DNA of 32,000 bases from positions 90,001 through 122,000 of the forward strand of contig JACQJH010000001.1 in NCBI GenBank assembly GCA_016205145.1, written 5' to 3'. The stretch comes from Candidatus Iainarchaeum sp. GTDB taxonomy: Archaea; Iainarchaeota; Iainarchaeia; Iainarchaeales; JACQJH01. The notes beneath the pieces were generated by a model. It was given only the letters and a program-made list of their open reading frames with translations, had not been told where the DNA came from and made no database searches. The position numbers and the translations under genes were made by a program. Below are positions 5,445 through 29,482 of the stretch, piece by piece (position 1 is the stretch's first letter; each line of letters begins with the position of its first letter).

Positions 5445-6161
5445 ATGATGCCGCTGAGAATTTTGCGTGAAAGGCGTGTCCCGGAGGAACGGCTCAAGGC
5501 GTTCTGGTGCGATTATGACAAGGGAAAAAGGCGTTCCACGACAAGAAGCAGGAGCAATGATCCCCGTGAACTGCCAAAGGCGTGGTTCGACCAGACCGGC
5601 GAAAGAAAACACGAGCCCATGGCGGTTTCGCTTGCCCCGCCATTGCCCGGAAGGGTCAGGAGCTTTTACGGCCAATCGCATCTGACGGCTTATCTTGCCG
5701 CGGCGGAGTTCTGCAACAGCGTCGGGAAAACCGGCGATTTGAAGTTTGCGGTTTTGCAGCCAACCCACATTCTCGGCGTCGACAGGCCGAATTTCAGGCT
5801 TGTTGAAAGGGTTTTTCACGCGCCCACGGTGGACAACGTTTTGTCTAATTCCGGCGGAAGCCTTTCGGGCGTTTCATTGTATGGCAAGGCCTTCGAGGAC
5901 AAAATGAAACGGAAAGGATTCGGCCTTTCCGGCAGGGAAAACTTTGAGAAACTGCGGTCCGACGTCCGGCGCGCTTATTCCGAACTTCGTGAAGCGCTTG
6001 TCGGCACTTTTGTGATGAAGCACAAAGGCGACCCGACAGTATTCGACTTCAAGGAACACAATTTCCTGGTCTTGGATTATGCGCCGGAAACCGGAAAGGT
6101 TTTGCTGGCGGTCGTAGATTACCTCAGCGACACCGCATTTTTGGGCATTAACCCGTTTTGA
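5445..6161 (+). CDS. hypothetical protein (start uncertain)
   Basis: 238-aa ORF. The C-terminal ~150 aa look globular (FVMKHKGDPTVFDFKEHNFLVLDYAPETGKVLLAVVDYL). The N-terminal ~60 aa are basic and low-complexity, so the true start may be the internal Met near 5619. Overlaps the MFS gene 3' end by 14 nt. No family recognised. Confidence 0.4.
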   Translation: MMPLRILRERRVPEERLKAFWCDYDKGKRRSTTRSRSNDPRELPKAWFDQTGERKHEPMAVSLAPPLPGRVRSFYGQSHLTAYLAAAEFCNSVGKTGDLKFAVLQPTHILGVDRPNFRLVERVFHAPTVDNVLSNSGGSLSGVSLYGKAFEDKMKRKGFGLSGRENFEKLRSDVRRAYSELREALVGTFVMKHKGDPTVFDFKEHNFLVLDYAPETGKVLLAVVDYLSDTAFLGINPF

Positions 6162-7257: not shown

Positions 7258-7280
7258 GAATTGCTTGCAGGGCGTTAACA

Positions 7281-7290
7281 ATTTAAAACA
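7281..7290. promoter_or_regulatory. single A/T box shared by two divergent, apparently leaderless genes
   Basis: atttaaaaca is the only A/T-rich element in the 54-nt spacer 7258-7311. Its centre lies ~26.5 nt from ATG 7312 (+) and ~28 nt from ATG 7257 (-). Confidence 0.45.
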
Positions 7291-7311
7291 CTTGCCGCAA
7301 TCTTTGTTTGC

Positions 7312-8370
7312 ATGTCCGTTGAAGACGCATTGAAGCAGAACAAGCCGAAAATCGACCGGGAACTTGAAAAAATTCTGCCGCGCAAAATCGGCAAAGCCTG
7401 GGTCGAATGGTTTCTGGGCAGAAGCGCCTACGACTGTGATTATGAAACACTGACAAAATCCGTTTCGGAACCGATTTGGGATTTTTTGGACCGCGGCGGG
7501 AAAAGATGGCGCCCTACCCTGATGCTCTGGAGCCTTGAAGCCGTGGGCGGAAAACCGGAACAATTCTACGAGTTCACGGCGATGCCCGAATTCATTCACA
7601 CTGGCACCATTGTCGCCGATGATTTGGAGGACAATTCAACCGAAAGAAGGGGAAAGCCCTGCATGCATCTCTTATACGGTCTTGACATAGCATTGAACGA
7701 TTCCAACATAATGTACTTTTTGCCTGCCGTGCTCTTGTACCGCAACAAAAAGCTTTCTCCGGGCCAGAAGGAAAAAATTTACGATTTGTTTGCCGAGGAA
7801 ATGATGCGCGTTTCCATCGGCCAGGCCATGGACATATACTGGCACAGGCACCAGTCAGTGAAAGTTTCAGAGGCGAACTACCTGCAGATGTGCGCCTACA
7901 AGACGGGTGTTTTGGCAAGGTTTTCAGCCAGGCTCGGCGCGATTCTCGGCAACGCTTCCGAAAAGCAGGTTGAAGCTTTGGGCAAGTTCGGCGAAAGCCT
8001 TGGAGTTGCCTTCCAGATACAGGATGACATTCTCAACCTGAAGCCGGAGTCCGGAGAGTGGGGCAAGGAAGTGGGCGACGACATCCAGGAAGGCAAGAAG
8101 ACTTTGCTTGTGATCCACGCCCTTGCAAACGCGCCCAGGGAAAAGGCAAAGCGCCTGGCGGAAATTCTTGAAAAGCACAGTTCCGGCAAAAAGGATATTG
8201 CAGAGGCCATTGCAATAATGGATGAAGCCGGCTCTTTCGCCTACGCGGCAAAAATGGCTCTCGGAATAGTCGAAAAAAGCTGGGCGGAAGCCGAAAAGGT
8301 TTTGCCTGAAAGCATGGCGAAGGGAAAACTGCGCGAGTTCGCGTTCTTTGCCGTGAAAAGAAAGGTATAA
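7312..8370 (+). CDS. trans-polyprenyl diphosphate synthase (probably geranylgeranyl diphosphate synthase)
   Basis: 352 aa. First and second Asp-rich motifs are IVADDLEDNSTERRGKP and FQIQDDILNL, and GKKTLL is also present. Product chain length cannot be read by eye. Confidence 0.85.
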   Translation: MSVEDALKQNKPKIDRELEKILPRKIGKAWVEWFLGRSAYDCDYETLTKSVSEPIWDFLDRGGKRWRPTLMLWSLEAVGGKPEQFYEFTAMPEFIHTGTIVADDLEDNSTERRGKPCMHLLYGLDIALNDSNIMYFLPAVLLYRNKKLSPGQKEKIYDLFAEEMMRVSIGQAMDIYWHRHQSVKVSEANYLQMCAYKTGVLARFSARLGAILGNASEKQVEALGKFGESLGVAFQIQDDILNLKPESGEWGKEVGDDIQEGKKTLLVIHALANAPREKAKRLAEILEKHSSGKKDIAEAIAIMDEAGSFAYAAKMALGIVEKSWAEAEKVLPESMAKGKLREFAFFAVKRKV

Positions 8371-16813: not shown

Positions 16814-18424
16814 GTGGATCAAAACCTTCCAAAAGGCCAGTCCGCCATAGAATATCTTTTGCTGTTGGGCGCCGCGATTTTGATTGCCGCGGTTGTCGTT
16901 GCCTTGATTATTTTTGTGGGTTCCGGGGGCAAGCAGTCGGCGCAAAGAGGGTCGCAGACTGTTGCTGTAGCGCAGGGGAATCTTTCCAAATCCCTTGGCC
17001 TGCCAGGCCCCATCACCGACCGCGGCGGCGGAATTTTTGATTTGAAAAAGGATTTTGGCGCGAAAGGCGACGGGGTTTCCGACGATTATGAATCGTTCAT
17101 TGCTGCTGCGGCCAAGCTGAGCGGTTCGACTGACGCAACGCTTGTCATTCCTGCAGGGGACTATAAGATTGACCGGTACAAGATTTTGGCTGCGACTTCC
17201 GACGGCAGGCTTCCAAATGGCGTAACCGACATCAAGTTTTCCGGATGCAACGGCCTGGAAATTGTCGGCTTGGGAAAGGACGCATCGGGAAACTACAAGG
17301 CAAAAGTCGAGGTCAAGGGCGACTTTTACAGGTCGGCGGACCGCAGTGCCGTCAATGCCGCGGGCGTGACGGTGTGGAGTTCCAATTCCGGTTCGGTCAC
17401 GCCGTTTTATTTCGATCACTGTAACGGATTTTCCATTTCCGGCTTGGAATTGTACGGCAACAACGACAAGATGTCGCACGATCCGCGCGTCAGAGAACAC
17501 CCGTCAGGAATGGGCATTGCGACTTATGGCTGCAAAAATTATTCGATTTCCGACATTTTTGTGCACAACTTCCAGACGGACGGCATTTACCTTGGCGGCT
17601 CGGCAAGCCCCGTGGATTCGGGCGCAACCGTTGACGGCGTGGTTTCAAGCAGCAACGGCAGGCAGGGCCTCAGCATAATTCAGGTGAAAAACTCGACAAT
17701 AAAAAACAGCGTTTTCAAGGACACCGGCATTACGGGCGGAAGCGACACAGGATATAATCCGAGGGCCGGCGTTGACATCGAGCCGAACGTGAACGTCCCC
17801 AACATAACCGAAAATCTTGTTTTTGAAAACGACGAGTTCAGCAACAACCGCGGCTACCAGATTGTTTCAAGCGCTTATGTTGGCGGAATCGTGGTCAGGA
17901 ATTCAAGGGTTTTTTCGGGAAACCAGCGCAAGCTCGCCTATTTCAGGGTGAACGGCATTACAATCGAGGGCTCCGAATTCAAGACTTCTGCAAGGGAGTT
18001 TGCCCAGGACTGGGACAAGAGCGGATTCGGGGTCACTCTCATGGCGGGCGGAACCGCGCTTATAAAAAACAATCTCATAGAGGCATCCTCGTTGGCGTAT
18101 CCTGTGAAAACCGTTGGAATCCACAGGCCTTACGTGCACTTCTTTTCGGGAAGCGGGATAACCTTTGCGGGCAACAGAATTTCCACCGACTCAAGCTTTT
18201 TTTATCCCATTTCAGGGCAGGCTTATGACACCGCAATTTATTTGAACGTCGGCGAATCCTCGAACAACACTTTTTCGACCGGCATGACCGGCTTAAACCA
18301 TTTCGCAGTCGTTTACGGCCCGGCCACAAAAGTCGTTTCAGACGCGTTTTTGCCGCGGGACAATTTCAGGCCGCAGCCGGGATATGTTTGGACTGGCGCA
18401 GGCAACTCTTATTCGCAGAACTGA
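16814..18424 (+). CDS. class III (prepilin-type) signal peptide fused to a right-handed beta-helix, pectate-lyase-superfamily domain
   Basis: GTG start. N-terminus MDQNLPKG/QSAIEYLLLLGAAILIAAVVVALI (basic residue-Gly, then Q at +1, E at +5, then a hydrophobic helix). Followed by FDLKKDFGAKGDGVSDDYESF..VIPAGDY and repeated PbH1-like turns: NGFSISGLELYGNN, YSISDIFVHNFQTDGIYLGG, GLSIIQVKNSTIKNSVF, LVFENDEFSNN. Confidence 0.8.
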   Translation: MDQNLPKGQSAIEYLLLLGAAILIAAVVVALIIFVGSGGKQSAQRGSQTVAVAQGNLSKSLGLPGPITDRGGGIFDLKKDFGAKGDGVSDDYESFIAAAAKLSGSTDATLVIPAGDYKIDRYKILAATSDGRLPNGVTDIKFSGCNGLEIVGLGKDASGNYKAKVEVKGDFYRSADRSAVNAAGVTVWSSNSGSVTPFYFDHCNGFSISGLELYGNNDKMSHDPRVREHPSGMGIATYGCKNYSISDIFVHNFQTDGIYLGGSASPVDSGATVDGVVSSSNGRQGLSIIQVKNSTIKNSVFKDTGITGGSDTGYNPRAGVDIEPNVNVPNITENLVFENDEFSNNRGYQIVSSAYVGGIVVRNSRVFSGNQRKLAYFRVNGITIEGSEFKTSAREFAQDWDKSGFGVTLMAGGTALIKNNLIEASSLAYPVKTVGIHRPYVHFFSGSGITFAGNRISTDSSFFYPISGQAYDTAIYLNVGESSNNTFSTGMTGLNHFAVVYGPATKVVSDAFLPRDNFRPQPGYVWTGAGNSYSQN

Positions 18425-18483
18425 CGTTTGCCTTTTGTGCACTTGGGCGTGCCAAAGGATTTAATTTGTGTGAATGATATTTG

Positions 18484-20031
18484 ATGGTGAAACCGATGTT
18501 TTCCCGTGGCCAGTCCGCAATCGAGTATCTGCTGTTGCTTGGCGCCGCGATTTTGATTGCCGCGGTTGTCGTTGCCTTGATTTCTTTTGTGGGTTCGGGC
18601 GGAAAGACTTCGGCGCAGGAATCAGGCGTGCAGCAGAGGCTGGCAATGCAGAACCTTGCGGCTGTTGGGGGCATGGGTTTCTCCTATTCCTGTGTTGCTA
18701 ATGGTGTCTGCGAAGCCGATGAAACAATGCAGTCCTGTTCCGCGGACTGTGCTGGCAAGCCTTTCAGGCAGTACCTGCATTTTTATTCGGCGGAGGCGGG
18801 GGGTTCTGAGGTTTCTTCCGTGCCGGCGCCCATGCTTAACGTGCCCGCTTCGGGTTTGCGGCATTATATCTATGTCGAGCTTTCCGAAATGCACGGGCAT
18901 CTCAGTGTTTACCGTTCCGCCACCGTAAACAATGCGAATAACCGGTCTGTCGCGCTTTCACCCGGCGAAATCGACGCGCTGTTCAATCTTTACGGCGTGG
19001 AAACGGGCAATCCTGTTAGAGGGAAGAGCATGAACATGAGCATACTGCAGCGTGCCGACGTGCAGAAAATCCATCATGAACTTGCACAAGGCAATCCTGC
19101 GTATAATGCAAAGTACGGCAATGGCGGCCTGGAAACAGGGGTCGGGCTTGACGGTTCCGGAATGCCCGTTCTTGATGCTTCCGACAAGCTTGTGCCGGAC
19201 AGACCGGTACAGGATTACCAAGACGGCAAAACAATGCTGTGGCCGTTTTACTACAATGCCAGCGGCAAGCATAAGATGAGGGTTCTCTGGAACCTTAACA
19301 GCCCGGCGGTCAGGGAATATCTTGTGCGGTACGGCGTGAAAACCGCCTCTTTCAGTCCAAGCGGCGACCTGTTTATTGACAACACTATTTTTCCGGGCCA
19401 GGTGCTGGAGGATTATTCATATGTTTTTTCAGGTGCAAGGAACGGCCTTGCGGCGCATCTTTCCGGCATTACATTGGAAATTCGGGCAGAAATCGTGAAA
19501 CGGCTTGACGGAAAGGGGCTGATAATGAACGCTCTCAGGTTCACAAACTCCGACAATGAGATATTTTCTGATGCTGTTGTTGATTCCGGCCAGTTTGACG
19601 GTTTGATGGCCGAAAACCAGTTTTGGCGTGATGGCATTGCCATTGGCGGTTCTCCAAGGGGTGCGACGTCCGTTGCATGGTACCGGGATTTGACGCAGAA
19701 AATGAAATCAAAAGGCAAAAAGATTCTTTTTACGGCCTCCGGCTCCGGTTTTACGCGGGCTGATCCCTCAAAGATTTTGCCAGTTTGGTTATGGTTGCAC
19801 TTGGTTGCTGATGACAGCACGTATTTTCTATTGCCGGGCAATGGAGCCGATGGCGATTCGTTTGATAACCAGTTCCTTCCGTTTGTTTTTCCGCTCGGCT
19901 ATCCGCTTGACCAAGCACCGGTGCAGGACGGCAGTGTGTGGAGCAGGCGCTATGAGCGCGGCACGATTGTTTTTGACATTTCAAGCGGAAGGCTTGACGC
20001 CATAAGGTTCGAGGAAAACCCGCCCGGGTGA
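18484..20031 (+). CDS. class III (prepilin-type) signal peptide fused to a Cys mini-module and a GH-like domain; paralog of 26452-28209
   Basis: N-terminus M(VKPM)FSRG/QSAIEYLLLLGAAILIAAVVVALI; alternative ATG at 18496. 18541-18582 is 42/42 identical to 16868-16909. CVANGVCEADETMQSCSADC is followed by ~430 aa collinear with the 26452 gene (SGQFDGLMAEN, WLWLHLVADD, GYPLDQAPVQDGSVWSRRYERGTIVFD). The enzymatic family is not confidently named. Confidence 0.8.
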   Translation: MVKPMFSRGQSAIEYLLLLGAAILIAAVVVALISFVGSGGKTSAQESGVQQRLAMQNLAAVGGMGFSYSCVANGVCEADETMQSCSADCAGKPFRQYLHFYSAEAGGSEVSSVPAPMLNVPASGLRHYIYVELSEMHGHLSVYRSATVNNANNRSVALSPGEIDALFNLYGVETGNPVRGKSMNMSILQRADVQKIHHELAQGNPAYNAKYGNGGLETGVGLDGSGMPVLDASDKLVPDRPVQDYQDGKTMLWPFYYNASGKHKMRVLWNLNSPAVREYLVRYGVKTASFSPSGDLFIDNTIFPGQVLEDYSYVFSGARNGLAAHLSGITLEIRAEIVKRLDGKGLIMNALRFTNSDNEIFSDAVVDSGQFDGLMAENQFWRDGIAIGGSPRGATSVAWYRDLTQKMKSKGKKILFTASGSGFTRADPSKILPVWLWLHLVADDSTYFLLPGNGADGDSFDNQFLPFVFPLGYPLDQAPVQDGSVWSRRYERGTIVFDISSGRLDAIRFEENPPG

Positions 20032-20108
20032 ATTTTCGCCCAAGTCGGAATTCGGTGGCCCGGAAAGCTTTTTATATGGTTTTACACTATTTTCTATTGT
20101 GTTTTAAT

Positions 20109-20357
20109 ATGAATTTGACCGTCAATTTTTCCGGCCACGTTGAAGACGTAATTGAACGCCTCGTTGAAAAAGGCGTTGTCAAAACGAAATCCGAAGCGCT
20201 TCGGCTTGGCATTCTGAAGCTTGAAGAGCAGTATCTGCGCAGCCTTGACGCAGATGACCTGATTTTGGCTGAAAAGGCATGGGATGATTTCAAAGCAGGC
20301 AAGAACAAATCTCTGTCGGAAAGGGAGTTCTACTCTAAAACAGGCCTGAAAAAATGA
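20109..20357 (+). CDS. putative antitoxin (ribbon-helix-helix-like) of a RelE-family toxin
   Basis: 82 aa from ATG 20109; the track ORF starts at 20028. MNLTVNFSGHVEDVIERLVEKGVVKTKSEALRLGILKLEE has a strand-helix-helix pattern. Its stop overlaps the toxin start (ATGA, 20354-20357). Confidence 0.6.
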   Translation: MNLTVNFSGHVEDVIERLVEKGVVKTKSEALRLGILKLEEQYLRSLDADDLILAEKAWDDFKAGKNKSLSEREFYSKTGLKK

Positions 20358-20605
20358 GTTTTGAAGCGGTTTTTCTTGAATCTTTTGCCGATGACGTGGC
20401 AAGGCTTGACGGCAGCCAAAAAACGCTTGTTGAAAAAAGGCTCCGCAGGCTCACTGCAAACCCGTTTTCCGAAAAGCCACTTCACGGCCAGAAACGGTTT
20501 TGGGCTTCGAGGATCCTGAACCTGAGAATAATTTACCGCATTGAAGGGCAAAAAATATTTTTTGCCAGGGTTTCAAGCAGGAAAGACGTTTACAAAAACC
20601 TGTAG
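20354..20605 (+). CDS. relE: RelE/ParE-superfamily type II toxin
   Basis: 83 aa. FADDVARLDGSQKTLVEKRLRRLTANPF..PLHG....SRILNLRIIYRIEGQKIFFARVSSRKDVYK matches the RelE/StbE pattern (...RiiY.i......i..v.hRkdvY). Confidence 0.8.
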   Translation: MSFEAVFLESFADDVARLDGSQKTLVEKRLRRLTANPFSEKPLHGQKRFWASRILNLRIIYRIEGQKIFFARVSSRKDVYKNL

Positions 20606-20608
20606 CTG

Positions 20609-20642
20609 AAATTTTGGCAGGTTTGAAGACCTGCCAAAATTT
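20609..20642. terminator. perfect 14-bp hairpin between convergent stop codons (probable bidirectional terminator)
   Basis: aaattttggcaggt-ttgaag-acctgccaaaattt. It starts 4 nt after the relE stop (20603-20605) and ends 2 nt before the stop of the minus-strand gene (20644-20646). T-runs flank it on both strands. Confidence 0.6.
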
Positions 20643-20643
20643 T

Positions 20644-21639
20644 TCACGCAAGGATTTTTGGCACGAAGTCCGCCATTGTTTTCAGGCCGGCGCCCGCCGA
20701 GAATGCGACCGGAACCATGTTGACCGCGATCGCGGCCGTTGCCCTGTCGCCGTGAGTTCCGCCCGAGATTTTCATGTCGATTGGCGGCACGCCGTGGATT
20801 TTGACTGCGTCAAACGATTCCGCTTCCCCGATGCCGGCGCGGAAATTCATGGAAATTATTTCTTTTCCGTTCACTTTCGCCGAGGCAGTCTGCTTCACGC
20901 CGCGAACGCTTCCCATACTTATCGTTCCCCAGCTTAACGCAATCTCCTTGTCCGAGATTATCGGGCTGATTGTCTGGCTGAACTCGAAATCCTTAAAGCC
21001 AAGGCAGTGCGCTATCATTGAAAGCGATTCAGGCAGGCCGACGTGCCTGATTGTGCCTTCCGCAACCTTTTTGTCGAACTCTTCAACCGAAAGCGTGGAA
21101 CCGATTTTTTTCTGGAAGGGAACGCGCCTGTTCGAGGCGTCAATCTGCCTCGTGATTTCGATTTTTTCGATTTTCTGGCATGGCGCTGTAAGCATCAATG
21201 GCAATGCGTCCATTACAAAGCCGGGGTTGACTCCGACACCAAGCACGCTGACGTTGTTTTTGCCGGCGATTTTGTCCAAGCGCTCCGCGATTTTCCTGTT
21301 CTCGCCTATGGGGAAAGAAAGCTCTTCGGTTGTCGAAACCACGTTCAGGCCCGATTCAAGCGCTTCGATGATCTGCGGTTCTGCCTTGGCAAGGCTTGAA
21401 ACGGTTGTGTGAACAACAACGTCCGCTTTTGCCCCGGAGAAAACTTTTTTCGCGCTGTCAGAAACCGTTACGCCTGCACGTTTTCCATTGCACAGTTCTC
21501 CGGCATCCTTTCCGGCTTTTTGCGGGTCGATGTCAATCGCGCCAGCCAATTCAAGTGACTGCTTTTCAAGGCAAAGCCTCGCGGTTTCCATTCCAATAGT
21601 TCCCAAACCGTATTGAATGACCCTGATTTTTTTTGCCAT
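20644..21639 (-). CDS. DapB-like NAD(P)-binding oxidoreductase (2,4-diaminopentanoate / amine dehydrogenase-like family)
   Basis: 331 aa from MAKKIRVIQYGLGTIGMETARL (Rossmann GxGxxG) at ATG 21639, which is preceded by GGAGG. Also VVHTT, NVVSTTEE and C-terminal ISGGTHGDRATAAI. The gene is 26 nt downstream of the ThyX-like gene. Confidence 0.65.
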   Translation of the reverse strand: MAKKIRVIQYGLGTIGMETARLCLEKQSLELAGAIDIDPQKAGKDAGELCNGKRAGVTVSDSAKKVFSGAKADVVVHTTVSSLAKAEPQIIEALESGLNVVSTTEELSFPIGENRKIAERLDKIAGKNNVSVLGVGVNPGFVMDALPLMLTAPCQKIEKIEITRQIDASNRRVPFQKKIGSTLSVEEFDKKVAEGTIRHVGLPESLSMIAHCLGFKDFEFSQTISPIISDKEIALSWGTISMGSVRGVKQTASAKVNGKEIISMNFRAGIGEAESFDAVKIHGVPPIDMKISGGTHGDRATAAIAVNMVPVAFSAGAGLKTMADFVPKILA

Positions 21640-21665
21640 GCTTTTTTCCTCCCATTCCAAAAAAA

Positions 21666-23285
21666 TTATTTTTTGCCAATGCGCTCCAGCTTTTCATCCG
21701 CCTTCTTTTCCGCTTCCAGCCTTTCCAGGCCCGCGCCTTTCTCGTAGACGAATTTCATGAGTTCGAAGACAAGCGGGGTCGCCTTTTTCGCCTGATGGAA
21801 CATTTCGATTGAAACCCTTCGGTAGTCGGCGTGTCCCTGCGGCGTCGACCTCAGCTCAACCAAGTGGTACATTTCACGCGCGTTGAGAGTGAAATACCAT
21901 CTTATTTTGTACGCGAGCGGGACAACGTATTGTGCCTGCAACGGCATTTCCTTCGCGATTTTATCGTAAGTTTCCTTCGCTCCTGCCATTGCCTTTTCAA
22001 ATTCCTTCAAAACGCCCGCCTTTTCCAGTTCGGGATAAGTGTCATAGCCGAAGTTTGCCGTCAAAAGCTGGCGTTCCTGTGTAAGCTGGCGATGTCGGTG
22101 CAAGTCACGGAAGCCGCCGTAATTTGAGAGCAAGTCGAAAGTGTAGTATGCGTTTTCGAAGCTTCGCAAAGGCTTGTGCCTGCGGTTCTGCCTGTGCGCA
22201 AGAGATGCATGGATGACTTTGCGCTTTTCCTCTTCGCCCATTGCGGCAACGATTTTTTTGAGCTGGTGCAGGGGCTTGTCGCTGTGCGCGTAAAGCAGCG
22301 CGCAAACGATTTTGTTGTCGGCTTCCATGTCAAAGTCGACCAGTTCCACTTCCTTTGCCTGCTCCGCATGTTTGCCTGCAAGCAGTTCTTTTGCGGTTGC
22401 GTCAAGGTTTGCGTTCGCCTGCCTGAAAAAATCCTGTGTCGGGCCGCCGTATTTTCCGGCCGCGCGCTTGACGAAAGAAGGAATGTAAGTCAAAAGCTCT
22501 TCGTGCAATGAAGAAGCGATGCCGTTGATTTCCTTCAATGGCGAGGCGTGCATTTTGAGTATGAGGTATTCGAACGCCCTGCCATTGCCGTACAGGCCGA
22601 GGTTTGTCAGCGTTGAAGCAGGCAGGAGGCCGCGCAGGAGGTCGCAGGTTTTAGCCTTGATTGTCGACTTGTACGCGCGGTCGGTTGTCTCGGAGTCCTG
22701 CGGAAACCATTCCTCGGCCTGTGTTCTCACTTTCGGCACGAGTTCGGCGTACGTGCCGAACAGCAAATCGCACGTTTCCACGTAATCCTTTTCGAATGCC
22801 GACTGCATTATGCCAGGCTCGAGCAGGTACTGGTATCGGCCGCCCTCTTTCTCGTCAAAGTAAACGTAGCGCGTGCTTTTTTCCAGGGGGGAGAGGCCAA
22901 TGCGTGAATCCTCGAGGACTTTGCTTGCGATGATTGAAACCTTTTCGCATGCGACGTGCGCTCCGCCTAATTCCGCGACGGAATCGTCGCCGTAGCCGAC
23001 CAGAACGCGGTCGTAAAACTCTTCGGCTTTCTTGGTTGCGATTGCCTGCTGTTCTCCGTTTCCAAGTGAATAGTTGACGATTTCCCGGAAGCCGGATTCC
23101 TTGTCGGCAATGAATTCGTCGAGCAAAAGCCTGCGCAATGGTTTCGGCGAGCGCGAATAGCGCGAGAACAGTGCGCCTGAAACGACTTCGGGCAGGTTTT
23201 TGAGGACAAAGACGTTTTTGTCCATGTTCGAAAAAAACGGTTCCAGGATTTTCCGCTCTTCCGAGGAAAAAGAATTTTCCGCCAT
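21666..23285 (-). CDS. long-form ThyX-like (Thy1-fold) protein, putative FAD-dependent thymidylate synthase
   Basis: 539 aa. The C-terminal half has FRDLHRHRQLTQERQ and TLNAREMYHLVELRSTPQGHADYR, which align with the ThyX RHR motif and NxRxLxxxxxLR...H/Q region. N-terminal GALFSRYSRS suggests a second, degenerate copy. Confidence 0.6.
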   Translation of the reverse strand: MAENSFSSEERKILEPFFSNMDKNVFVLKNLPEVVSGALFSRYSRSPKPLRRLLLDEFIADKESGFREIVNYSLGNGEQQAIATKKAEEFYDRVLVGYGDDSVAELGGAHVACEKVSIIASKVLEDSRIGLSPLEKSTRYVYFDEKEGGRYQYLLEPGIMQSAFEKDYVETCDLLFGTYAELVPKVRTQAEEWFPQDSETTDRAYKSTIKAKTCDLLRGLLPASTLTNLGLYGNGRAFEYLILKMHASPLKEINGIASSLHEELLTYIPSFVKRAAGKYGGPTQDFFRQANANLDATAKELLAGKHAEQAKEVELVDFDMEADNKIVCALLYAHSDKPLHQLKKIVAAMGEEEKRKVIHASLAHRQNRRHKPLRSFENAYYTFDLLSNYGGFRDLHRHRQLTQERQLLTANFGYDTYPELEKAGVLKEFEKAMAGAKETYDKIAKEMPLQAQYVVPLAYKIRWYFTLNAREMYHLVELRSTPQGHADYRRVSIEMFHQAKKATPLVFELMKFVYEKGAGLERLEAEKKADEKLERIGKK

Positions 23286-23350
23286 TGCCCCACCAGACTA
23301 AATTAAAGCAATGGCAATGGTTAAATATTTCACTTTTGATTATTGTTTTC

Positions 23351-26300
23351 ATGCCCCATAAAACCGGCCGGCCGCGCCATTATTCCGACAGGGCCATTAA
23401 GCGGCCCGGAAGAGGCTTTTCGCATGGCCAGGGCTCTTTGGACCGCCTGATTCTCCTCGGAATCGTGGTTTTGGTTTTCGCAGTCATAATGCTTGTTGCC
23501 TTTTCCCGTCCGCATGAAAGGGCTGACGGGAAAGTGCAGGCCTATTATGCGGGGAATGGGCGGAGTGGCGTTCGTGAAGTGTTCGACTTTTTGGGCGTGC
23601 TAAAATTTGGCATGAATTCCGGTTCCGGCGGCCCTGAAATTAAGCCCGCCGTCATTCCGGGTGACGTGAACCAAAGCAAAAAGCCGGATGTCGTGCCCGC
23701 AACAGGCACTGACAAGGAACCCGTGATTCGGGCCTGCAGCAATGACTGTTCTTCCGCCGGCTTGAGGCAGTGTTCCGGTTCCGGCTATAATGTCTGCGGA
23801 AACTTTGACGAAGACGACTGCCTTGAATGGGGTTCCTGGACAGGCTGTCCTGACGGCCGGGCGTGCGCCAACGGAAACTGCGAAGTTTCTCGCGGGGTTT
23901 TTTCTTCTGAGGGCCTTGTTTCATACTGGCGTTTTGATGATTTGTCGGATTCGTTTGGTTCAAATGATTTGGTTATGTCCGGCAATGTTGTTGCGGGTTC
24001 TTCGCCTGATTGCGCTTTCGGCGGCTGCCTTGCCCTTGATTCTTCTTCCGGGCAGGCCGAAGCCAGGGGTTTGCCGGATTCGGGCGGTTTGTCTGATTTG
24101 TCGATTGCGTTGCGCGTCAAGTTTGGCGCCGGTGGCGATACTGCCACCCGGGCCTGGGTGGCGGGCTGGGCCGATGCGCAGGGCCAGGGCGTAGGTTTTT
24201 ACCGCTATGGCGCCAGCCAGCTTGTTTTTTTCGCCAACGGCGCGGATGGCAGTTTGACTGATTGCTGGAGTTCCGCCTTGAATGACGGCAAATGGCACCG
24301 GCTGGCGGGCGAGGCGTCTGAACAGCACATAACCTTGTTTGTGGACGGGTTTCCTCTTTGTTACAAGGCGCGTTCCGGCGCATTTCTTTCCGGCGCCAGC
24401 TTCAAGGCCGGCGGCCCGGTTTCCCCATCTGGCAGCGTTCTTGTTGACGAGCTGATGGTTTTCGACCGTTCGTTCACGCAGTTCGTTCACCCGCAGGCCG
24501 GTTACACTTTGCTGGGCGCTTTGCCATCCAACGCGCTTGGCATGAGGGGGCCGGTTATAGGCGCCGGCGGCGCGGTGCCGGGCGTGTACCTGTTTGACGG
24601 CAAAATATACTTTTTTTCCAGCATGGACGCATACAACTATTATAGCCTTTGCAGTTACGCCGTTTCAGGCAGCTCCGCGCGCTCTTTTGCTGTCGAGTAC
24701 GGTGATCGTTACAATACCTTCTTCGTGGACGGGGGCTTGGTGTGTGCGTGGCCGGCAAACCGCGGGCTCGCCGTTGCGCGTCCGCCTGACGACGGCTATG
24801 CCAATGAAGGGGCGGCCGCAACCACGCGGCTGCAGGCGGGCACGTTCCTGTCAACGGCCGGCCTTGACGGGCTGCCCGTGCACCGCAAGCGCCTAATTAC
24901 CGCGGGCTGGCTCAGCCCTGATTTGAAGTCCTTAAAGGAAGACCTTGGCGTGTACGACGAGTCCGGATTCGACGGCATCGCGATAGACGACGAGGTATTC
25001 TTCAATGAACCGGGCAGGCCGTGGCCATTGAATATATTTCAGAAGACCGCCTTAAGCACGGGCCGCAGGTACCGGGAAGGGCAGTTTGACGCCGTCGCCG
25101 GAGAAGTCGGGCAGGCCCTGGGAAAAGCGAAGAACCTGAAGCATAATTACATGGTACTCTATCTGGGCTGGACGCATTCGTCGGTTCTCGGCAACCACCT
25201 GAGCCCGGTGCTCGATGCGGACGGGATACCGGTATTCGACGCCAACGGCCTTAAGCTCCATAACCTGACTGCGGACGAGCAATGGCAAATCATTGCCGGC
25301 AACGCGCGGGTTGCAGCAGGGCTGGCGAAAAAGGCCGGCCTTGAAGGAATCATAATTGATACTGAACAGAACTATTCGGTCAACACCCAGGACCCCGGTT
25401 ACATTGCTTACAAGGGTTCTCCGCTTACCCTCAGCTACGAACAATCCGTGCCGGTCAATCCGGCGCCGTTCGCCGAGTACGAGGCCGCGGCCCGCCAGCG
25501 GGGGCAACAATTGGCATCCGCGATGGCCGAGGAGTATCCGGACATGACCGTGCTCTTCCATTTTGCGTACAGCCTGTACAGCGACAAGGACAGAAAGGAA
25601 ACAGGCGGAATCGACCAAAAGAGTTATTTGGAACGGTATACCCTACTGCCTGCCTTCATCGACGGCATGCTCGAAGGCGCTCCGGGCATCCGGTTCATTG
25701 ACGGCGACGAGTGGACCTACACCATCCGGCGGCGCGGGCAACTGCTTGACCGCAAGAAGCATTTCCTTGAAAACGCGCTTGAAAAATCCGCCACAAACAC
25801 GCCCGGGAACCGACAGATTGAATACGGTCAAGAGCTGTGGGCTACCGTGCTTGAGCAGACGCCCGATGATGCAGCTTGGGTTGATGTAAACTTTATTCCC
25901 GAAGATGAGATTGAATTGGCTAAGCAGTTCGGATACGGAATCCGCGACGCCTTGCGCGCAAGCGAGGGCATGGTTCTGATTTGGCACGCACAGCGTCCGC
26001 CGTGGCCGGTCTACCGGACTGCAAGAAATGGGCAGAGGTACCGCGCCCAGGGCGTGATGCCCGATTCTTTCAGACAGGCGATAAAGGATGCGCGCAAGAA
26101 TGTCGAGGGCAACACCAATCCGGTGATGCCGGTTGTCGGTTTTGTTTCGGCAGGCACGGGGGAAAAAGTTTCAATCACTTTGCCTGAGGCAAGCGACGCC
26201 GACGGGGATTCCTTGATTACCTGGGTTGACGGCCTGCCGGAAGGCGCGTCTTACGAGCCGCTTTCCCGCACAATCGAATGGCCGAACCCGCGCGCGGGAA

Positions 26301-26377
26301 TCTACTCCCTGTCTTACGGCGCTTCCGACGGCTTTTTGGAAGCCGCGGCACAGTTCAGCCTTGTGATTTACGGCTAG
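23351..26377 (+). CDS. large secreted multidomain protein: possible degenerate class III signal, Cys-rich module, LamG/ConA-like lectin domain, ~550-aa putative TIM-barrel-like domain, C-terminal Ig/cadherin-like domain
   Basis: 1008 aa from ATG 23351; the track start 23285 would abut the divergent gene. FSHG/QGSLDRLILLGIVVLVFAVIMLV. CSNDCSSAGLRQCSGSGYNVCGNFDEDDCLEWGSWTGCPDGRACANGNC. LamG-type GLVSYWRFDDLSDSFGSNDLVMSGN...WHRLAG...LFVDG...VDELMVFDRSF. GFDGIAIDDE and GLEGIIIDTEQNY. C-terminal ITLPEASDADGDSLITWVDGLPEGASYEP...GIYSLSYGASDG. Confidence 0.8.
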   Translation: MPHKTGRPRHYSDRAIKRPGRGFSHGQGSLDRLILLGIVVLVFAVIMLVAFSRPHERADGKVQAYYAGNGRSGVREVFDFLGVLKFGMNSGSGGPEIKPAVIPGDVNQSKKPDVVPATGTDKEPVIRACSNDCSSAGLRQCSGSGYNVCGNFDEDDCLEWGSWTGCPDGRACANGNCEVSRGVFSSEGLVSYWRFDDLSDSFGSNDLVMSGNVVAGSSPDCAFGGCLALDSSSGQAEARGLPDSGGLSDLSIALRVKFGAGGDTATRAWVAGWADAQGQGVGFYRYGASQLVFFANGADGSLTDCWSSALNDGKWHRLAGEASEQHITLFVDGFPLCYKARSGAFLSGASFKAGGPVSPSGSVLVDELMVFDRSFTQFVHPQAGYTLLGALPSNALGMRGPVIGAGGAVPGVYLFDGKIYFFSSMDAYNYYSLCSYAVSGSSARSFAVEYGDRYNTFFVDGGLVCAWPANRGLAVARPPDDGYANEGAAATTRLQAGTFLSTAGLDGLPVHRKRLITAGWLSPDLKSLKEDLGVYDESGFDGIAIDDEVFFNEPGRPWPLNIFQKTALSTGRRYREGQFDAVAGEVGQALGKAKNLKHNYMVLYLGWTHSSVLGNHLSPVLDADGIPVFDANGLKLHNLTADEQWQIIAGNARVAAGLAKKAGLEGIIIDTEQNYSVNTQDPGYIAYKGSPLTLSYEQSVPVNPAPFAEYEAAARQRGQQLASAMAEEYPDMTVLFHFAYSLYSDKDRKETGGIDQKSYLERYTLLPAFIDGMLEGAPGIRFIDGDEWTYTIRRRGQLLDRKKHFLENALEKSATNTPGNRQIEYGQELWATVLEQTPDDAAWVDVNFIPEDEIELAKQFGYGIRDALRASEGMVLIWHAQRPPWPVYRTARNGQRYRAQGVMPDSFRQAIKDARKNVEGNTNPVMPVVGFVSAGTGEKVSITLPEASDADGDSLITWVDGLPEGASYEPLSRTIEWPNPRAGIYSLSYGASDGFLEAAAQFSLVIYG

Positions 26378-26492: not shown

Positions 26493-28209
26493 ATTTTTCA
26501 TGCCGCATTTGAAACCGGTTGTTGTCTGCGCATTTGTGTTGCTTGTTTTGCTTTCCGGTTGCACCGCCACAAAAAGCAAAGGCGTGGAAAAGCCGGTTGA
26601 TTCCGACAAAAACTTTTTGGATTCAAACCAAGCCAAGTCCGCGCCCGAAACTGGCGGGCCGCGACAGCCGCCAACCACGGAATTGGTTGCTGAACAACCG
26701 GACGCCAATGTTCCGGATGCAAACGCCGGCGCACCCGACGTGAATGCAGCGGCTGCTGTCGTGTTTTGTAACCGGAACGGCGCCTGCGACACAAACGAGT
26801 CCGCGGTTTCCTGTCCGGCCGATTGTGCCATTCTTTCCGGAGGCGGAGGAGGCGGCAATTCGCCACAGCCGCCGTCAGGAAACGATAGCGGTTCGTGCAA
26901 TTCGGACGGCGCATGCAACGGAAACGAGGACACAGCTTCATGCCCTGCTGACTGCAGTGTAAGGCAGTTCAGGCATTATTTGCGGTTTTATGCTTTGGAT
27001 TACTATAATCGGTTTTCAACAAAGCCGCCGGCGCCGGAAGGGCTGGTTGAATTCACCATCACGCAGGGCACGCCTTTTGGCAACCTGCAGGATTATACTC
27101 ATTTTAATGTGACGGATTCCGGCCATGTTGTTTTGACAACTTCCACTGCGCCCAAAACTCTTGTTGCGTTGAGCCAAAGCGAGCTTGACGGCTTGTTTGC
27201 GCAGTATGGTTTTGGCGGGGATAAAAACAACATCTATTCTGGCGTGATTGCAAGGGCTGAAGTCGGGAAAATCCATGAGGAACTTGTAGAACGCCATCCG
27301 GAGCTTTTTCCGAACGGCACTGAATTGTTTGTCGGCGCCGTCATAGGGCCGGACGGGTTGCCCGAGCTCGTGGACAACTTTCCGGTCAGGGAAAGAAGCG
27401 ACATTGCCGACTACCAGCTTGGCAAAACAATGGTTTACCCGCTTCCATATTCGCCGGTCGGCTACGGGCGGTACCGGACGCTTTGGAATCACGGCAGCTG
27501 GGCGGTCAGGGTATATCTTGCAAGAAGGGCCAATAAGCTGGTGAATGGCGTTCCAGGCGTGGAGAATATTTTTTTGGATAACGTGCAATTGCCGGCTTAT
27601 ATCAAATATCTTGGCTCCCGTGTTGGTTCGGTTCCGGTGCCAAATTATGTTTCGCCCGGAAGCAGGGATGAACAGTTTGCTGTTTATGCGAACAATTTTG
27701 TTTCGGTTCTTACTGCCGTTCGCGTAAAAACCGGCGCAAAAATGCTTCTTAACGGTTTGTATGAAGTGAAGGCTAACCAAAGCATTTTTTTTCAAAAACT
27801 AATTGCGTCCGGCCAGTTTGACGGCCTTATGACGGAAAACGGGTTTTTTGCTGACGGCGTGGAAAACAATTTGGGCGGCAGCGCGGCAAGCGTGCAATGG
27901 TACTGGGATCAGGTGCAGTGGTTGAAGCAAAACGGCAAAAACGCGGTTTTTTTGGCGGGCGGGAAGGACGCTTCGAAGGCATCCAAGGCCTGGCTTTGGG
28001 TGCATTTAGTTGCTGACACCAATGTTTTCTTTTCGACCAATCCCAATGAACATTTTGACGTTTACGATTCTCCTTTGGGGTATCCTCTTGACCAGGCTCC
28101 GGTAAAAAACGGCAGCGTGTGGAGCAGGCGCTACGAGCGCGGCACGATTGTCTTTGACGTTTCGGGCGGAAGGCTTGACGACATAAAGTTTGTCGAAGGC
28201 CCGGCATAG
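26452..28209 (+). CDS. lipobox-anchored GH-like protein with two Cys mini-modules; paralog of 18484-20031
   Basis: MHPSDAIKGTASKRFFMPHLKPVVVCAFVLLVLLSGC; alternative start at 26500. FCNRNGACDTNESAVSCPADCA, a GGGGGG linker and CNSDGACNGNEDTASCPADCS. The body is collinear with the 18484 gene (SGQFDGLMTEN, WLWVHLVADT, GYPLDQAPVKNGSVWSRRYERGTIVFD). Confidence 0.8.
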   Translation: MHPSDAIKGTASKRFFMPHLKPVVVCAFVLLVLLSGCTATKSKGVEKPVDSDKNFLDSNQAKSAPETGGPRQPPTTELVAEQPDANVPDANAGAPDVNAAAAVVFCNRNGACDTNESAVSCPADCAILSGGGGGGNSPQPPSGNDSGSCNSDGACNGNEDTASCPADCSVRQFRHYLRFYALDYYNRFSTKPPAPEGLVEFTITQGTPFGNLQDYTHFNVTDSGHVVLTTSTAPKTLVALSQSELDGLFAQYGFGGDKNNIYSGVIARAEVGKIHEELVERHPELFPNGTELFVGAVIGPDGLPELVDNFPVRERSDIADYQLGKTMVYPLPYSPVGYGRYRTLWNHGSWAVRVYLARRANKLVNGVPGVENIFLDNVQLPAYIKYLGSRVGSVPVPNYVSPGSRDEQFAVYANNFVSVLTAVRVKTGAKMLLNGLYEVKANQSIFFQKLIASGQFDGLMTENGFFADGVENNLGGSAASVQWYWDQVQWLKQNGKNAVFLAGGKDASKASKAWLWVHLVADTNVFFSTNPNEHFDVYDSPLGYPLDQAPVKNGSVWSRRYERGTIVFDVSGGRLDDIKFVEGPA

Positions 28210-28244
28210 GTCAGCCGTTTTGTTCGCTGTTTGTCGTATCCGCG

Positions 28245-28320
28245 CTGTTTTAAAAATCCTTTTCCGGCCATTCGTTTTTATGCATCCAAGCGAAGCAATC
28301 CGGGCTTCCGCGTCAAAAAG
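28245..28320 (+). repeat. direct repeat copy B: promoter plus first 13 codons of coaBC
   Basis: ctgttttaaaaatccttttccggccattcgtttttatgcatccaagcgaagcaatccgggcttccgcgtcaaaaag. The TATA-like ttttaaaaa (28248-28256) lies ~28 nt upstream of ATG 28280. Confidence 0.85.
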
Positions 28321-29482
28321 CCTTTACGGAAAGCTCATAGTGTTGGGAGTTTCATCAAGCATTGCCGCAGTGAAGACTGTTGAAATTGCAAGGGAACTGA
28401 TCAGGCACGGCGCGGAAGTGCAGGCAGTGATGTCAAAGGGCGCGGAAGACATCATTGCGCCGGGGGCGCTGGAGTTTGCCACGGGGAAGCCTGTCATAAC
28501 GCATCTCAGCGGAATGGTCGAGCACGTCGACCTGTTCGGAGCGCATGGAAAAGCCGATTTGCTTTTGTTGTGCCCTGCAAGCGCAAACGTGATTGGAAAA
28601 ATCGCGAATGGCATAGCTGATGATGCCCTGACAACCATTGCAATGACTGTTGTTGGGGTGAAAAAGCCAGTCCTGGTCTGCCCGGCAATGCATTTGGAAA
28701 TGTGGCAGAACACTGCCGTCAGGGTGAACGTCGAAAAGCTTGGCGTGCTGGGCGCGGAATTCGTGCCGGCGAAAAGCCTTGAAGGCGCGGAAAAAATCGC
28801 GGACAAGGAAACGATTGTGCTGTTTGTGGAACGGGCGCTTTCCGGCAAAAGGCTTGCAGGCAAAAAGGTTGTCGTTTGCGCCGGCGCAACGCGCGAGGAA
28901 ATCGATCCCGTGCGCGTGCTGACAAACAAGGCATCGGGAAAAACCGGCGAGGAAATCGCAAAAGAGGCTTTCAGGCAGGGCGCACAAACCACACTTATAC
29001 ATAATCGGGATTGTTTTGTTTCCGGCATCAAATGCGTGCAGGCGCAAACCATCGAGGAATTCCGCAAGGCAATCCTTTCGGAGCTTGAAGGCGCGGATGT
29101 TTTCGTCTCGGCGGCGGCAATCGGCGATTTTGTAGTGGAAAAGGCGAAGGACAAGCTTGCTTCGGAAAAAGGCGTTGAATTGAAGTTCAGGCCCGCCCCT
29201 AAAATCCTCGCGGAAGTCGTGAAGAAATTTCCCGATTTGTTCGTTGTCGCGTTCAAGGCGGAAACGAACAAGGGGACGGAAGAGCTTGAAAAAATCGCAA
29301 AGGAAAAGCTGAAGGAACTGAAGCAGGGCTTTGTGGTTGCGAACGACGTGGCACATGGTGGAATGGGAACGGATGAAAATTCGGTTTTGATCGTCGGCAA
29401 AAACTTTTCGGAAAGCGTTTCAGGAAAGAAAAGCCTGATTGCCAGAAAAATCGTGGAAAAAATTGAATGCGGTCTGCCATAA
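28280..29482 (+). CDS. coaBC: bifunctional phosphopantothenoylcysteine decarboxylase / phosphopantothenate-cysteine ligase
   Basis: 400 aa from MHPSEAIRASASKSLYGKLIVLGVSSSIAAVK. CoaC region: PASANVIGKIANGIADDALT. CoaB region: VCAGATREEIDPVRVLTNKASGKTG and AAAIGDF. The start is chosen at the conserved ATG of repeat B rather than the track start 28190. Confidence 0.9.
   Translation: MHPSEAIRASASKSLYGKLIVLGVSSSIAAVKTVEIARELIRHGAEVQAVMSKGAEDIIAPGALEFATGKPVITHLSGMVEHVDLFGAHGKADLLLLCPASANVIGKIANGIADDALTTIAMTVVGVKKPVLVCPAMHLEMWQNTAVRVNVEKLGVLGAEFVPAKSLEGAEKIADKETIVLFVERALSGKRLAGKKVVVCAGATREEIDPVRVLTNKASGKTGEEIAKEAFRQGAQTTLIHNRDCFVSGIKCVQAQTIEEFRKAILSELEGADVFVSAAAIGDFVVEKAKDKLASEKGVELKFRPAPKILAEVVKKFPDLFVVAFKAETNKGTEELEKIAKEKLKELKQGFVVANDVAHGGMGTDENSVLIVGKNFSESVSGKKSLIARKIVEKIECGLP

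Follow-up and report, generated by a model that had tools for sequence, protein, structure and literature searches.

The long-form ThyX gene and its relatives

In the window, meaning the whole 32-kb stretch of DNA that was analysed, an open reading frame encoding 539 aa occupied positions 21666–23285 of the minus strand. It was followed on the same strand by a gene for a 331-aa NAD(P)-dependent enzyme and, beyond this gene, by a terminator-like hairpin. The 539-aa protein was approximately 2.4 times as long as the ThyX of Thermotoga maritima (220 aa), in agreement with the initial annotation, which had noted a ThyX-like protein more than twice the classical size. GenBank contains a 100% identical protein, annotated as "FAD-dependent thymidylate synthase", in a MAG of a Candidatus Diapherotrites archaeon. 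The Pfam family Thy1 (PF02511) was matched over two stretches (E = 2.1e-39, 135.8 bits for a gathering cut-off of 24.8), the best one covering residues 315–504. The score against the NCBIfam equivalog TIGR02170 was below the cut-off (62.8 versus 87.9 bits), and the best stretch was limited to residues 425–508. The AF2 model of the full-length protein showed a pLDDT of 84.2 and a pTM of 0.85, and ThyX chains were the only Foldseek matches of this model, with TM-scores of 0.68–0.75 relative to the target. The Thy1 fold was recognized by Foldseek in the whole model and also in the N-terminal half alone, and every chain matched by either model measured 179–246 aa. No solved structure of a long-form ThyX was found, the PDB sequence matches being weak and single-domain (E of about 0.004). 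Neither thyA nor a short thyX was present among the open reading frames scanned in the 32-kb window. The gene probably encodes the flavin-dependent thymidylate synthase of the cell, in a long, tandem two-lobe form, a function predicted here from sequence and modelled structure. In all likelihood, this DPANN archaeon produces dTMP itself, by means of a flavin-dependent enzyme.

The tandem two-lobe architecture is common and has been annotated before. There are more than 8000 homologues with a length near 540 aa, and tandem ThyX proteins of 500–600 aa constitute a very large family across DPANN archaea, CPR and other bacteria. At E ≤ 1e-30, 745 cluster representatives (50% identity) were obtained, including members of the CPR, Dormibacteria, Armatimonadota, Myxococcota and Eisenbacteria; they matched over the full length, in both lobes, at identities as low as 33%. 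Across DPANN phyla the identity was 54–60%. There were at least 547 matches among the GTDB species genomes, from which 80 loci titled DPANN or unclassified archaeon were kept. The gene for serine hydroxymethyltransferase, the enzyme responsible for regenerating the one-carbon donor, was a recurrent neighbour, found within 6 kb of ThyX in 15 of these 80 loci, and a FolC-like Mur-ligase-family gene was found within the same distance in five. The initial annotation had envisaged that the catalytic residues might all prove conserved in a well-characterised subfamily. The residues are indeed conserved when both lobes are considered, but the subfamily has no solved structure, and the searchable literature yielded no description of a two-domain ThyX or of ThyX in DPANN, and no activity data for the long form. 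Our verdict is that this is an ordinary housekeeping gene of an already known kind.

Two lobes and the counterparts of the active-site residues

The C lobe (residues 313–539, positions 21669–22349, minus strand) was aligned by hhalign with Thermotoga-type ThyX at a probability of 97.9% (E = 5e-13). It has the Thy1 fold, with counterparts of the RHR, Arg174 and His178 and a shortened substrate loop. The alignment placed the ThyX motif at RDLHRHRQLTQERQ, residues 393–406 (22068–22109, minus strand), where R397-H398-R399 correspond to the RHR, T402 occupies the place of the first Ser, and the Ser-x-Arg-Tyr segment is absent from the shortened loop. The segment HRHRQLTQERQ (residues 396–406) had been correctly read in the initial annotation as retaining the RHR, with no serines or motif spacing evident by eye. 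Conservation was counted in 133 diverse family members, down to 33% identity. R397 was present in 133/133, H398 in 128/133 and R399 in 132/133, and the position of T402 was a Thr in 108 and a Ser in 18. R479 (21849–21851, minus strand), aligned with T. maritima R174, was conserved in 132/133, and the position of T. maritima R147 was taken by Q452 (21930–21932).

The N lobe (residues 1–300, positions 22386–23285, minus strand) also has the Thy1 fold and keeps the dUMP-binding loop, without the RHR. It was aligned with Thermotoga-type ThyX at a probability of 95.9% (E = 6e-9). When modelled alone, the N half reached a pLDDT of 84.1, and its best Foldseek match was Mycobacterium tuberculosis ThyX (E = 2.9e-7, TM-score 0.57). 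The ThyX profile match of each lobe, together with the ThyX fold of the isolated N half, supports the single-chain pseudo-dimeric ThyX that had been put forward as one possibility. The counterpart of the ThyX motif in this lobe, aligned by hhalign with T. maritima R78–Y91, is DSRIGLSPLEKSTRY, residues 126–140 (22866–22910, minus strand). In it the RHR is replaced by DSR, and E135, S137, R139 and Y140 correspond to T. maritima E86, S88, R90 and Y91, with S137-T-R139-Y140 facing S88-G-R90-Y91. S137, R139 and R128 were invariant (133/133 each), Y140 was found in 131/133 and E135 in 130/133. The reported lack of the canonical Ser therefore holds for the C lobe and not for the protein as a whole; the "missing serine" was the effect of reading one lobe only. 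R218 (22632–22634, minus strand), aligned with T. maritima R147, was conserved in 130/133, and the position of T. maritima R174 was a Lys or Arg in the N lobe. The segment GDDSVAE (residues 99–105, 22971–22991, minus strand) was aligned with T. maritima G52-H-E-T55-P-F-E58; its G99 and S102 were both conserved in 133/133, and the pLDDT was below 50 over residues 94–104, which span most of it.

Over the first 60 residues, the alignment with canonical ThyX was not reliable. These residues contain FSRYSR (residues 40–45, 23151–23168, minus strand), a family-specific invariant motif distinct from the ThyX motif, with S44 conserved in 131/133 and R45 in 132/133, located at the end of a predicted helix (residues 33–43) which is the first of the protein. 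The surrounding GALFSRYSRS (residues 37–46) had been taken for a second, degenerate ThyX motif. This had to be abandoned, as the profile alignments placed the N-lobe motif at residues 126–140 and none of them put GALFSRYSRS on the ThyX motif. Compared to canonical ThyX, the N lobe carries an insertion of approximately 40 residues in addition to extra invariant motifs such as FSRYSR.

A contiguous RHRxxSxxxxSxR was found in neither lobe, and the motif was complete only when the two were combined. The catalytic and ligand residues (Arg78/His79/Arg80, Ser88/Arg90/Tyr91, Arg147 and Arg174) were all represented across the lobes, each in 128–133 of the 133 relatives, and the residues which the literature describes as contacting dUMP or FAD all had conserved counterparts, either in the N lobe or in the C lobe. 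The residues attributed to a third subunit (T. maritima T55/R165) may be supplied by either lobe, as S102 in the N lobe and R374 and R470 in the C lobe were all conserved. In canonical ThyX, one active site receives the RHR and Arg199 of M. tuberculosis (Arg174 in T. maritima) from subunit A, and Ser105, Arg107 and Tyr108 of M. tuberculosis (S88, R90 and Y91 in T. maritima) from subunit C (PMC6514825). Gln75 and Arg182 are provided by monomer A of PBCV-1 ThyX, and Ser88 and Gln89 by monomer B (PMC3498832). S88, R90, Y91 and R174 are kinetically important, and dUMP is activated by Arg174 in the T. maritima enzyme (PMC8316439).

Because canonical subunits separate the RHR and Arg174 from Ser88, Arg90 and Tyr91, the two lobes look like complementary half-sites. 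We propose a model in which the long form consists of two diverged Thy1 domains joined in one chain and would convert dUMP, with methylene-tetrahydrofolate and NADPH, into dTMP via FAD. In this model, the C lobe would play the role of subunit A, its RHR holding the FAD phosphates and contacting dUMP while R479 activates dUMP. The N lobe would play the role of subunit C by supplying the Glu-x-Ser-x-Arg-Tyr substrate loop (E135, S137, R139, Y140). R218, the counterpart of R147, which is assigned to the same subunit, also lies in the N lobe. Since each lobe has lost the residue set kept by the other, a dimer of the 539-aa chain, mimicking the canonical tetramer, would have only two active sites, both composite, where the tetramer has four, a half-of-sites arrangement. 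The model predicts that each lobe, once the domains were fused, retained one half only of the inter-subunit active site. This structural prediction is concrete and testable, and concerns a ThyX subfamily which is very large, extends over DPANN, CPR and a number of bacterial phyla and has no structure in the PDB.

Two other readings of the protein were considered. In the first, which makes more specific the different substrate suggested in the initial annotation, a Thy1-fold flavoenzyme would methylate another nucleotide, for example in the manner of a UMP/dUMP methylase like PolB or of some other enzyme that modifies pyrimidines, and would not be the housekeeping thymidylate synthase. In its favour are the score under the TIGR02170 cut-off, the unusual architecture and loop, the Gln452 in place of R147 in the C lobe, and the presence of PolB (4p5a) among the N-lobe Foldseek matches. 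We nevertheless regard this reading as unlikely: all listed dUMP-contacting residues of ThyX are conserved across the two lobes, the family is highly conserved between DPANN phyla, the synteny is with serine hydroxymethyltransferase and FolC-like genes, and PolB was ranked by Foldseek below ThyX. In the second, the C lobe alone would be catalytic, without the Ser/Arg/Tyr loop, and the N lobe would be a pseudo-enzyme domain with a structural or regulatory role only. The C lobe is the nearer to canonical ThyX, by its hhalign probability and by the best Pfam stretch, and the N lobe has no RHR. However, S137, R139, Y140, E135 and R218 show little or no variation in relatives down to 33% identity, which would not be expected if the role of the domain were purely structural, and canonical ThyX becomes severely slower with the substitutions S88A, R90A and Y91A (PMC8316439). 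The chances of this second reading appear slim.

The composite-site model can be carried further, tentatively. Long-form ThyX might be obligately asymmetric, a dimer with two composite catalytic sites (C-lobe RHR/Arg479 with N-lobe Ser137/Arg139/Tyr140) and two further sites around the N lobe, vestigial and perhaps repurposed, and might constitute the characteristic thymidylate synthase of ultra-small DPANN/CPR cells. The vestigial sites may serve, for example, for the binding of NADPH, folate or an allosteric nucleotide. The N lobe still has R128, S102 and a basic residue where Arg174 would stand, as well as the new invariant S44/R45.

The downstream DapB-like gene

The gene following ThyX (20644–21639, minus strand) encodes a 331-aa protein of the NAD(P)-dependent amine-dehydrogenase/2,4-diaminopentanoate-dehydrogenase family, here called DapB-like. 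The spacer between the two genes (21640–21665, minus strand) measures exactly 26 nt up to the next ATG, as the initial annotation had it, and the GGAGG reported there lies within a GGGAGG, 8 nt before the ATG (21639). The spacer starts with a run of seven T straight after the TAA, and the co-transcription stated in the initial annotation is putative; runs of at least five T followed 8 of the 24 open reading frames in the window. On the other side, a perfect 11-bp inverted repeat, TTTTGGCAGGT / ACCTGCCAAAA (20612–20639), forms a terminator-like hairpin where the DapB-like and ParE genes converge, and the 50-nt stretch containing it had a predicted RNA folding energy of −21.6 kcal/mol.

The protein contains a DAP_DH_C domain (PF19328, 119.4 bits) and a DapB_N Rossmann domain (33.9 bits), and was similar over its full length to amine dehydrogenases of the PDB (7xdu, 2e-57; AmDH4, 6g1h/6g1m, 4e-44), which bears out its first description as an amine-dehydrogenase/DapB-like enzyme. 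It does not classify as a DapB (4-hydroxy-tetrahydrodipicolinate reductase), as it scored 35.9 bits against TIGR00036 for a cut-off of 122 and its C-terminal domain is DAP_DH_C and not DapB_C. Its score for 2,4-diaminopentanoate dehydrogenase (Ord, NF040740) was 265 bits for a cut-off of 400. The two domains, the full-length similarity and the conserved catalytic Glu place it in the native amine dehydrogenase family (PF19328). This Glu, E105, is aligned with E102 of the Petrotoga mobilis AmDH4, and R164 is aligned with R161. Ile and Phe stand where AmDH4 has N163 and H264, and the substrate is therefore probably not 2,4-diaminopentanoate.

A DapB-like gene was found beside ThyX in none of the 80 related loci, nor beside the closest ThyX relative (69% identical). 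Conversely, ThyX was absent from the loci of the closest relatives of the DapB-like protein (74%, 68% and 66% identity), whose contexts differed. Beyond these, the identity of the homologues fell from 66% to 49%; most carried no name, and the named ones were bacterial (Planctomycetota, Acidoferrum). No composition signal of a recent horizontal insertion was detected in the DapB-like gene, its GC (0.525) and GC3 (0.61) being neighbour-like. A conserved ThyX/DapB-like operon was rejected, the pairing being missing from both sets of loci. A functional pair, in which the oxidoreductase would bring reducing equivalents to the flavin, as the initial annotation had suggested, or share a pathway with ThyX, would fit the common strand, the short gap with its ribosome-binding-like GGGAGG, the hairpin closing the unit after the second gene and the similar GC and GC3, but is most improbable in view of the loci just described, the drop in identity towards bacterial homologues, the T run straight after the ThyX stop and the direct oxidation of NADPH by canonical ThyX, an enzyme with neither a dedicated NAD(P)H-binding domain nor a dedicated partner (PMC3498832). 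The DapB-like gene is an unrelated chance neighbour, and it tells nothing about ThyX.

Comparison with known ThyX-fold enzymes

The Thy1 fold of both lobes is that of the canonical homotetrameric ThyX/FDTS enzymes, such as T. maritima TM0449 (PDB 1kq4/1o26) and M. tuberculosis Rv2754c (PDB 2af6/3gwc), and the chemistry is presumably the same. The counterparts of the canonical RHR, Arg174, His178, Glu58, Asn163 and Arg165 are in the C lobe, and those of Glu86, Ser88, Arg90, Tyr91 and Arg147 in the N lobe. Whereas canonical ThyX is made of four identical chains of ~220–250 aa, each with a contiguous ThyX motif, the long form has two diverged domains in one 539-aa chain and its motif is divided between them. 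Two active sites per assembly are predicted, compared to four in canonical ThyX. PolB (PDB 4p5a), a ThyX-like UMP/dUMP C5-methylase of polyoxin biosynthesis, shares the Thy1 fold but has a single domain, comes from a context of secondary metabolism and was a weaker match than bona fide ThyX.

The ThyX of Chlamydia trachomatis (CT632) is reportedly about 529 aa long and was reportedly characterised biochemically by Griffin et al. in 2005 (J Biol Chem). If this length is right, it would be a ThyX of double length whose thymidylate synthase activity has been demonstrated, which we mention as a lead only; no study on CT632 was found in the searchable literature. The Chlamydia trachomatis enzyme was purified and assayed (PMC3498832). 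Should this drug target have the same layout as the protein described here, its composite and asymmetric site ought to be taken into account in the design of inhibitors.

Two Thy1 domains in one chain

The 539-aa ThyX ORF (21666-23285, minus strand, ATG start) matched Pfam Thy1 (PF02511) in two stretches (E=2.1e-39) and scored 62.8 bits against the NCBIfam thyX equivalog, under the 87.9 cut-off. A 100% identical GenBank entry, from a Candidatus Diapherotrites MAG, is named 'FAD-dependent thymidylate synthase'. There were more than 8000 ThyX homologues; the matches listed (120) were 531-581 aa long, with 54-60% identity across Diapherotrites/Iainarchaeota, Micrarchaeota, Aenigmatarchaeota and Woesearchaeota. 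In GTDB species genomes, at least 547 encoding loci were picked up by a pattern scan. The exhaustive HMMER search of 1.84 billion cluster representatives returned 4262 matches at E<=1e-3, of which 745 reached E<=1e-30. Nearly all of the best 150 were 500-600 aa long and aligned full length, with identity down to 33%. Named family members include Curtissbacteria (CPR), Dormibacteria, Armatimonadota, Myxococcota and Eisenbacteria. The double-length ThyX is thus a large, cross-domain, already annotated subfamily, not peculiar to this Iainarchaeum genome. The gene is an ordinary housekeeping gene, and its product is best filed with the flavin-dependent thymidylate synthases, in the long tandem-domain subfamily already labelled ThyX in databases.

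The proposal of the initial annotation that one chain carries two Thy1 copies was borne out, as both lobes (residues 1-300 and 313-539) match ThyX by profile and the N-terminal half alone also does so by predicted fold. The AlphaFold2 model of the whole chain (pLDDT 84.2, pTM 0.85) retrieved only single-domain ThyX chains from the PDB with Foldseek, at TM 0.68-0.75 relative to the target, and no two-lobe ThyX structure was found there. Residues 1-300 modelled alone (pLDDT 84.1) again gave ThyX first, with the M. tuberculosis structure 3hzg at E=2.9e-7, TM 0.57 and rmsd 3.3 A over 189 columns. Per-lobe profiles, built from 133 diverse family members, were aligned to a Thermotoga-type ThyX profile after the T. 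maritima sequence had been checked against 1kq4. The C lobe aligned with 97.9% probability (E=5e-13) and the N lobe with 95.9% (E=6e-9).

The downstream dehydrogenase

The 331-aa DapB-like ORF (20644-21639, minus strand) lies downstream of thyX after a 26-nt spacer, which reads TAA-TTTTTTT-GGAATGGGAGG-AAAAAAGC-ATG from the ThyX stop to the DapB-like start. Co-transcription is possible, given the common strand, the spacing and a hairpin beyond the second gene. The T7 run abutting the ThyX stop codon (21659-21665, minus strand) counts against read-through. Termination in archaea is typically signalled by oligo-T tracts; T runs of at least 5 lay within 40 nt 3' of the stop for 8 of the 24 ORFs of the window, consistent with this mode of termination. 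The hairpin is a perfect 11-bp inverted repeat, TTTTGGCAGGT/ACCTGCCAAAA, at 20612-20639, where the ParE and DapB-like genes converge. The 50-nt stretch containing it folds as RNA at -21.6 kcal/mol, and the repeat resembles a terminator acting in both directions.

The 331-aa protein has DapB_N and DAP_DH_C domains and falls short of the equivalog cut-offs for dapB and for 2,4-diaminopentanoate dehydrogenase. An identical (100%) GenBank entry, from the same Candidatus Diapherotrites MAG as the ThyX entry, is called 'dihydrodipicolinate reductase'. Over its whole length the protein could be aligned with amine dehydrogenases of known structure (7xdu, 2e-57; AmDH4 6g1h/6g1m, 4e-44). It retains the Glu and Arg aligned with E102 and R161 of AmDH4 but has Ile and Phe in place of N163 and H264. 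As judged from its sequence, the protein is therefore an enzyme of the amine-dehydrogenase family, and not DapB or a true 2,4-diaminopentanoate dehydrogenase. Identity among its homologues drops from 66% to 49%, where the minority that carry an organism name are bacterial (Planctomycetota, Acidoferrum, 'NAD(P)H-dependent amine dehydrogenase family').

The idea that this dehydrogenase supplies ThyX with reductant is not supported by comparison with other genomes. With the 331-aa query, tblastn gave no match in the 80 related loci carrying long thyX, and the gene is absent beside P0002, a 69%-identical ThyX. Its own relatives (74%, 68% and 66% identity) adjoin VIT1, an RsmB-type methyltransferase, and a tRNA-intron endonuclease with Kae1; the partial genes upstream of two of these relatives do not encode ThyX. 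In canonical ThyX, NADPH itself donates the hydride and no partner takes part (PMC3498832). A gene of the NAD-dependent epimerase/dehydratase family (PF01370), which is not the same NAD(P)-binding neighbour as that of the window, lies directly downstream of long thyX on the same strand in about 11 of the 80 loci (L047, L056, L062, L064, L068, L069, L077, L079 and L080 included).

Other genes of the window

The other content is ordinary cellular: CoA-pathway genes, pyruvate phosphate dikinase, polyprenyl synthase, an MFS transporter and a ParE toxin. The CoA-pathway genes encode a cytidylyltransferase-like (PPAT-type) protein (1431-1910, minus strand), the dephospho-CoA kinase CoaE (1903-2475, minus strand) and CoaBC (28190-29482, plus strand). 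CoaE is of the bacterial type (PF01121, 130 bits), which is noteworthy here, since a different dephospho-CoA kinase is usual in archaea. The MFS transporter ORF (6148-7599, minus strand) and the polyprenyl synthetase ORF (7312-8370, plus strand) overlap at their 5' ends by about 290 nt; the true MFS start is probably further in, since the Pfam match begins at residue 118. Encoded side by side on the plus strand (16814-18424 and 18481-20031) are two proteins, each about 520 aa long, that have in common the N-terminal segment QSAIEYLLLLGAAILIAAVVVALI; by eye this segment resembles an archaeal class III (type IV pilin-like) signal peptide. The two may be paralogues that are secreted or displayed on the cell surface. 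The overlapping small genes at 20028-20357 and 20354-20605 (plus strand), the second encoding the ParE toxin (PF05016), have a GC content of 0.43-0.45 against 0.52 for the window, and probably form a mobile toxin-antitoxin cassette that borders on the DapB-like gene. Divergent from thyX, a 1030-aa ORF (23285-26377, plus strand) carries a ConA-like lectin/Laminin_G_3 domain; its nominal TTG start falls on the ATG of ThyX and probably extends the ORF too far.

Active-site residues of the two lobes

The strings HRHRQLTQERQ and GALFSRYSRS, quoted in the initial annotation, were found at residues 396-406 and 37-46. In the profile alignment, R397-H398-R399 of the C lobe correspond to R78-H79-R80 of T. 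maritima (Tm) and T402 to S83. The loop that follows is shortened, without a counterpart of Tm S88, R90 and Y91. Other C-lobe pairs are R479 with R174, H485 with H178, E377 with E58, and N468/R470 with N163/R165, and Q452 takes the position of R147. The N-lobe segment DSRIGLSPLEKSTRY (126-140) aligns with Tm R78-Y91 and has D126-S127-R128 in place of R-H-R. S132, E135, S137, R139 and Y140 correspond to S83, E86, S88, R90 and Y91, R218 to R147, and N234/R236 to N163/R165, with K244 at the position of R174. Among the 133 representatives, which share 33-57% identity with the query, S137, R139 and R128 are conserved throughout (133/133), Y140 in 131, and E135 and R218 in 130 each; in the C lobe the counts are 133 for R397 and E377, 132 for R399 and R479, 129 for R470 and 128 for H398.

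The reported loss of the canonical Ser thus holds for the C lobe and fails for the whole protein, since the aligned N-lobe segment includes S137. This segment, and not GALFSRYSRS, is the N-lobe motif counterpart. FSRYSR (residues 40-45; window 23151-23168, minus strand) is family-specific, with S44 in 131/133 and R45 in 132/133, and lies where the first predicted helix ends. GDDSVAE (residues 99-105; 22971-22991, minus strand) likewise consists of family-specific N-lobe residues, with G99 and S102 in 133/133; the AlphaFold pLDDT of its loop is <50.

According to a review of structures from M. tuberculosis and H. pylori (PMC6514825), subunit A contributes the RHR that holds the FAD phosphates and two residues that hold dUMP, Arg95 and Arg199 (Tm R78 and R174); subunit C contributes Ser105, Arg107 and Tyr108 (Tm S88, R90 and Y91), which hold dUMP as well; and Ser71 and Arg190 of subunit B (Tm T55 and R165) make further contact with FAD. 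Of these residues, S88, R90, Y91 and R174 matter for the kinetics of the enzyme (PMC8316439). By alignment, the C lobe retains exactly the subunit-A set without the C set, and the N lobe exactly the subunit-C set plus the Arg147 counterpart, without the A set. Because the canonical tetramer has 222 symmetry and the two sets are complementary, in a dimer of two-lobe chains two active sites would be complete and two degenerate. We infer that the N-lobe loop would reach the C-lobe flavin site in such a dimer. Candidates for the third-subunit residues are S102 of the N lobe (133/133) and R374 and R470 of the C lobe.

A Thy1-fold enzyme acting on another substrate, as had also been suggested, is disfavoured. 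All dUMP-contact residues are kept, and a serine hydroxymethyltransferase (SHMT; Pfam match E=7e-160) lies within 6 kb of long thyX in 15 of the 80 related loci, from Aenigmatarchaeota, Micrarchaeota, Norongarragalinales and unclassified archaea, the SHMTs being mutually only 52-60% identical. SHMT regenerates the methylene-tetrahydrofolate consumed by ThyX (PMC6514825). The residues and this context together favour thymidylate synthesis. IMP dehydrogenase and a FolC-like Mur ligase were near long thyX in nine and five of the 80 loci, respectively.

No description of a split-motif, half-of-sites layout was found in the literature searched, which omits most subscription journals. This residue-level account of how the long form may work amounts to a modest structural prediction that can be tested. 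The ThyX of Chlamydia trachomatis (CT632) is likewise long, at about 529 aa, and has measured activity. The Chlamydia enzyme has been purified and assayed (PMC3498832); a link between it and the present long ThyX is a lead only.
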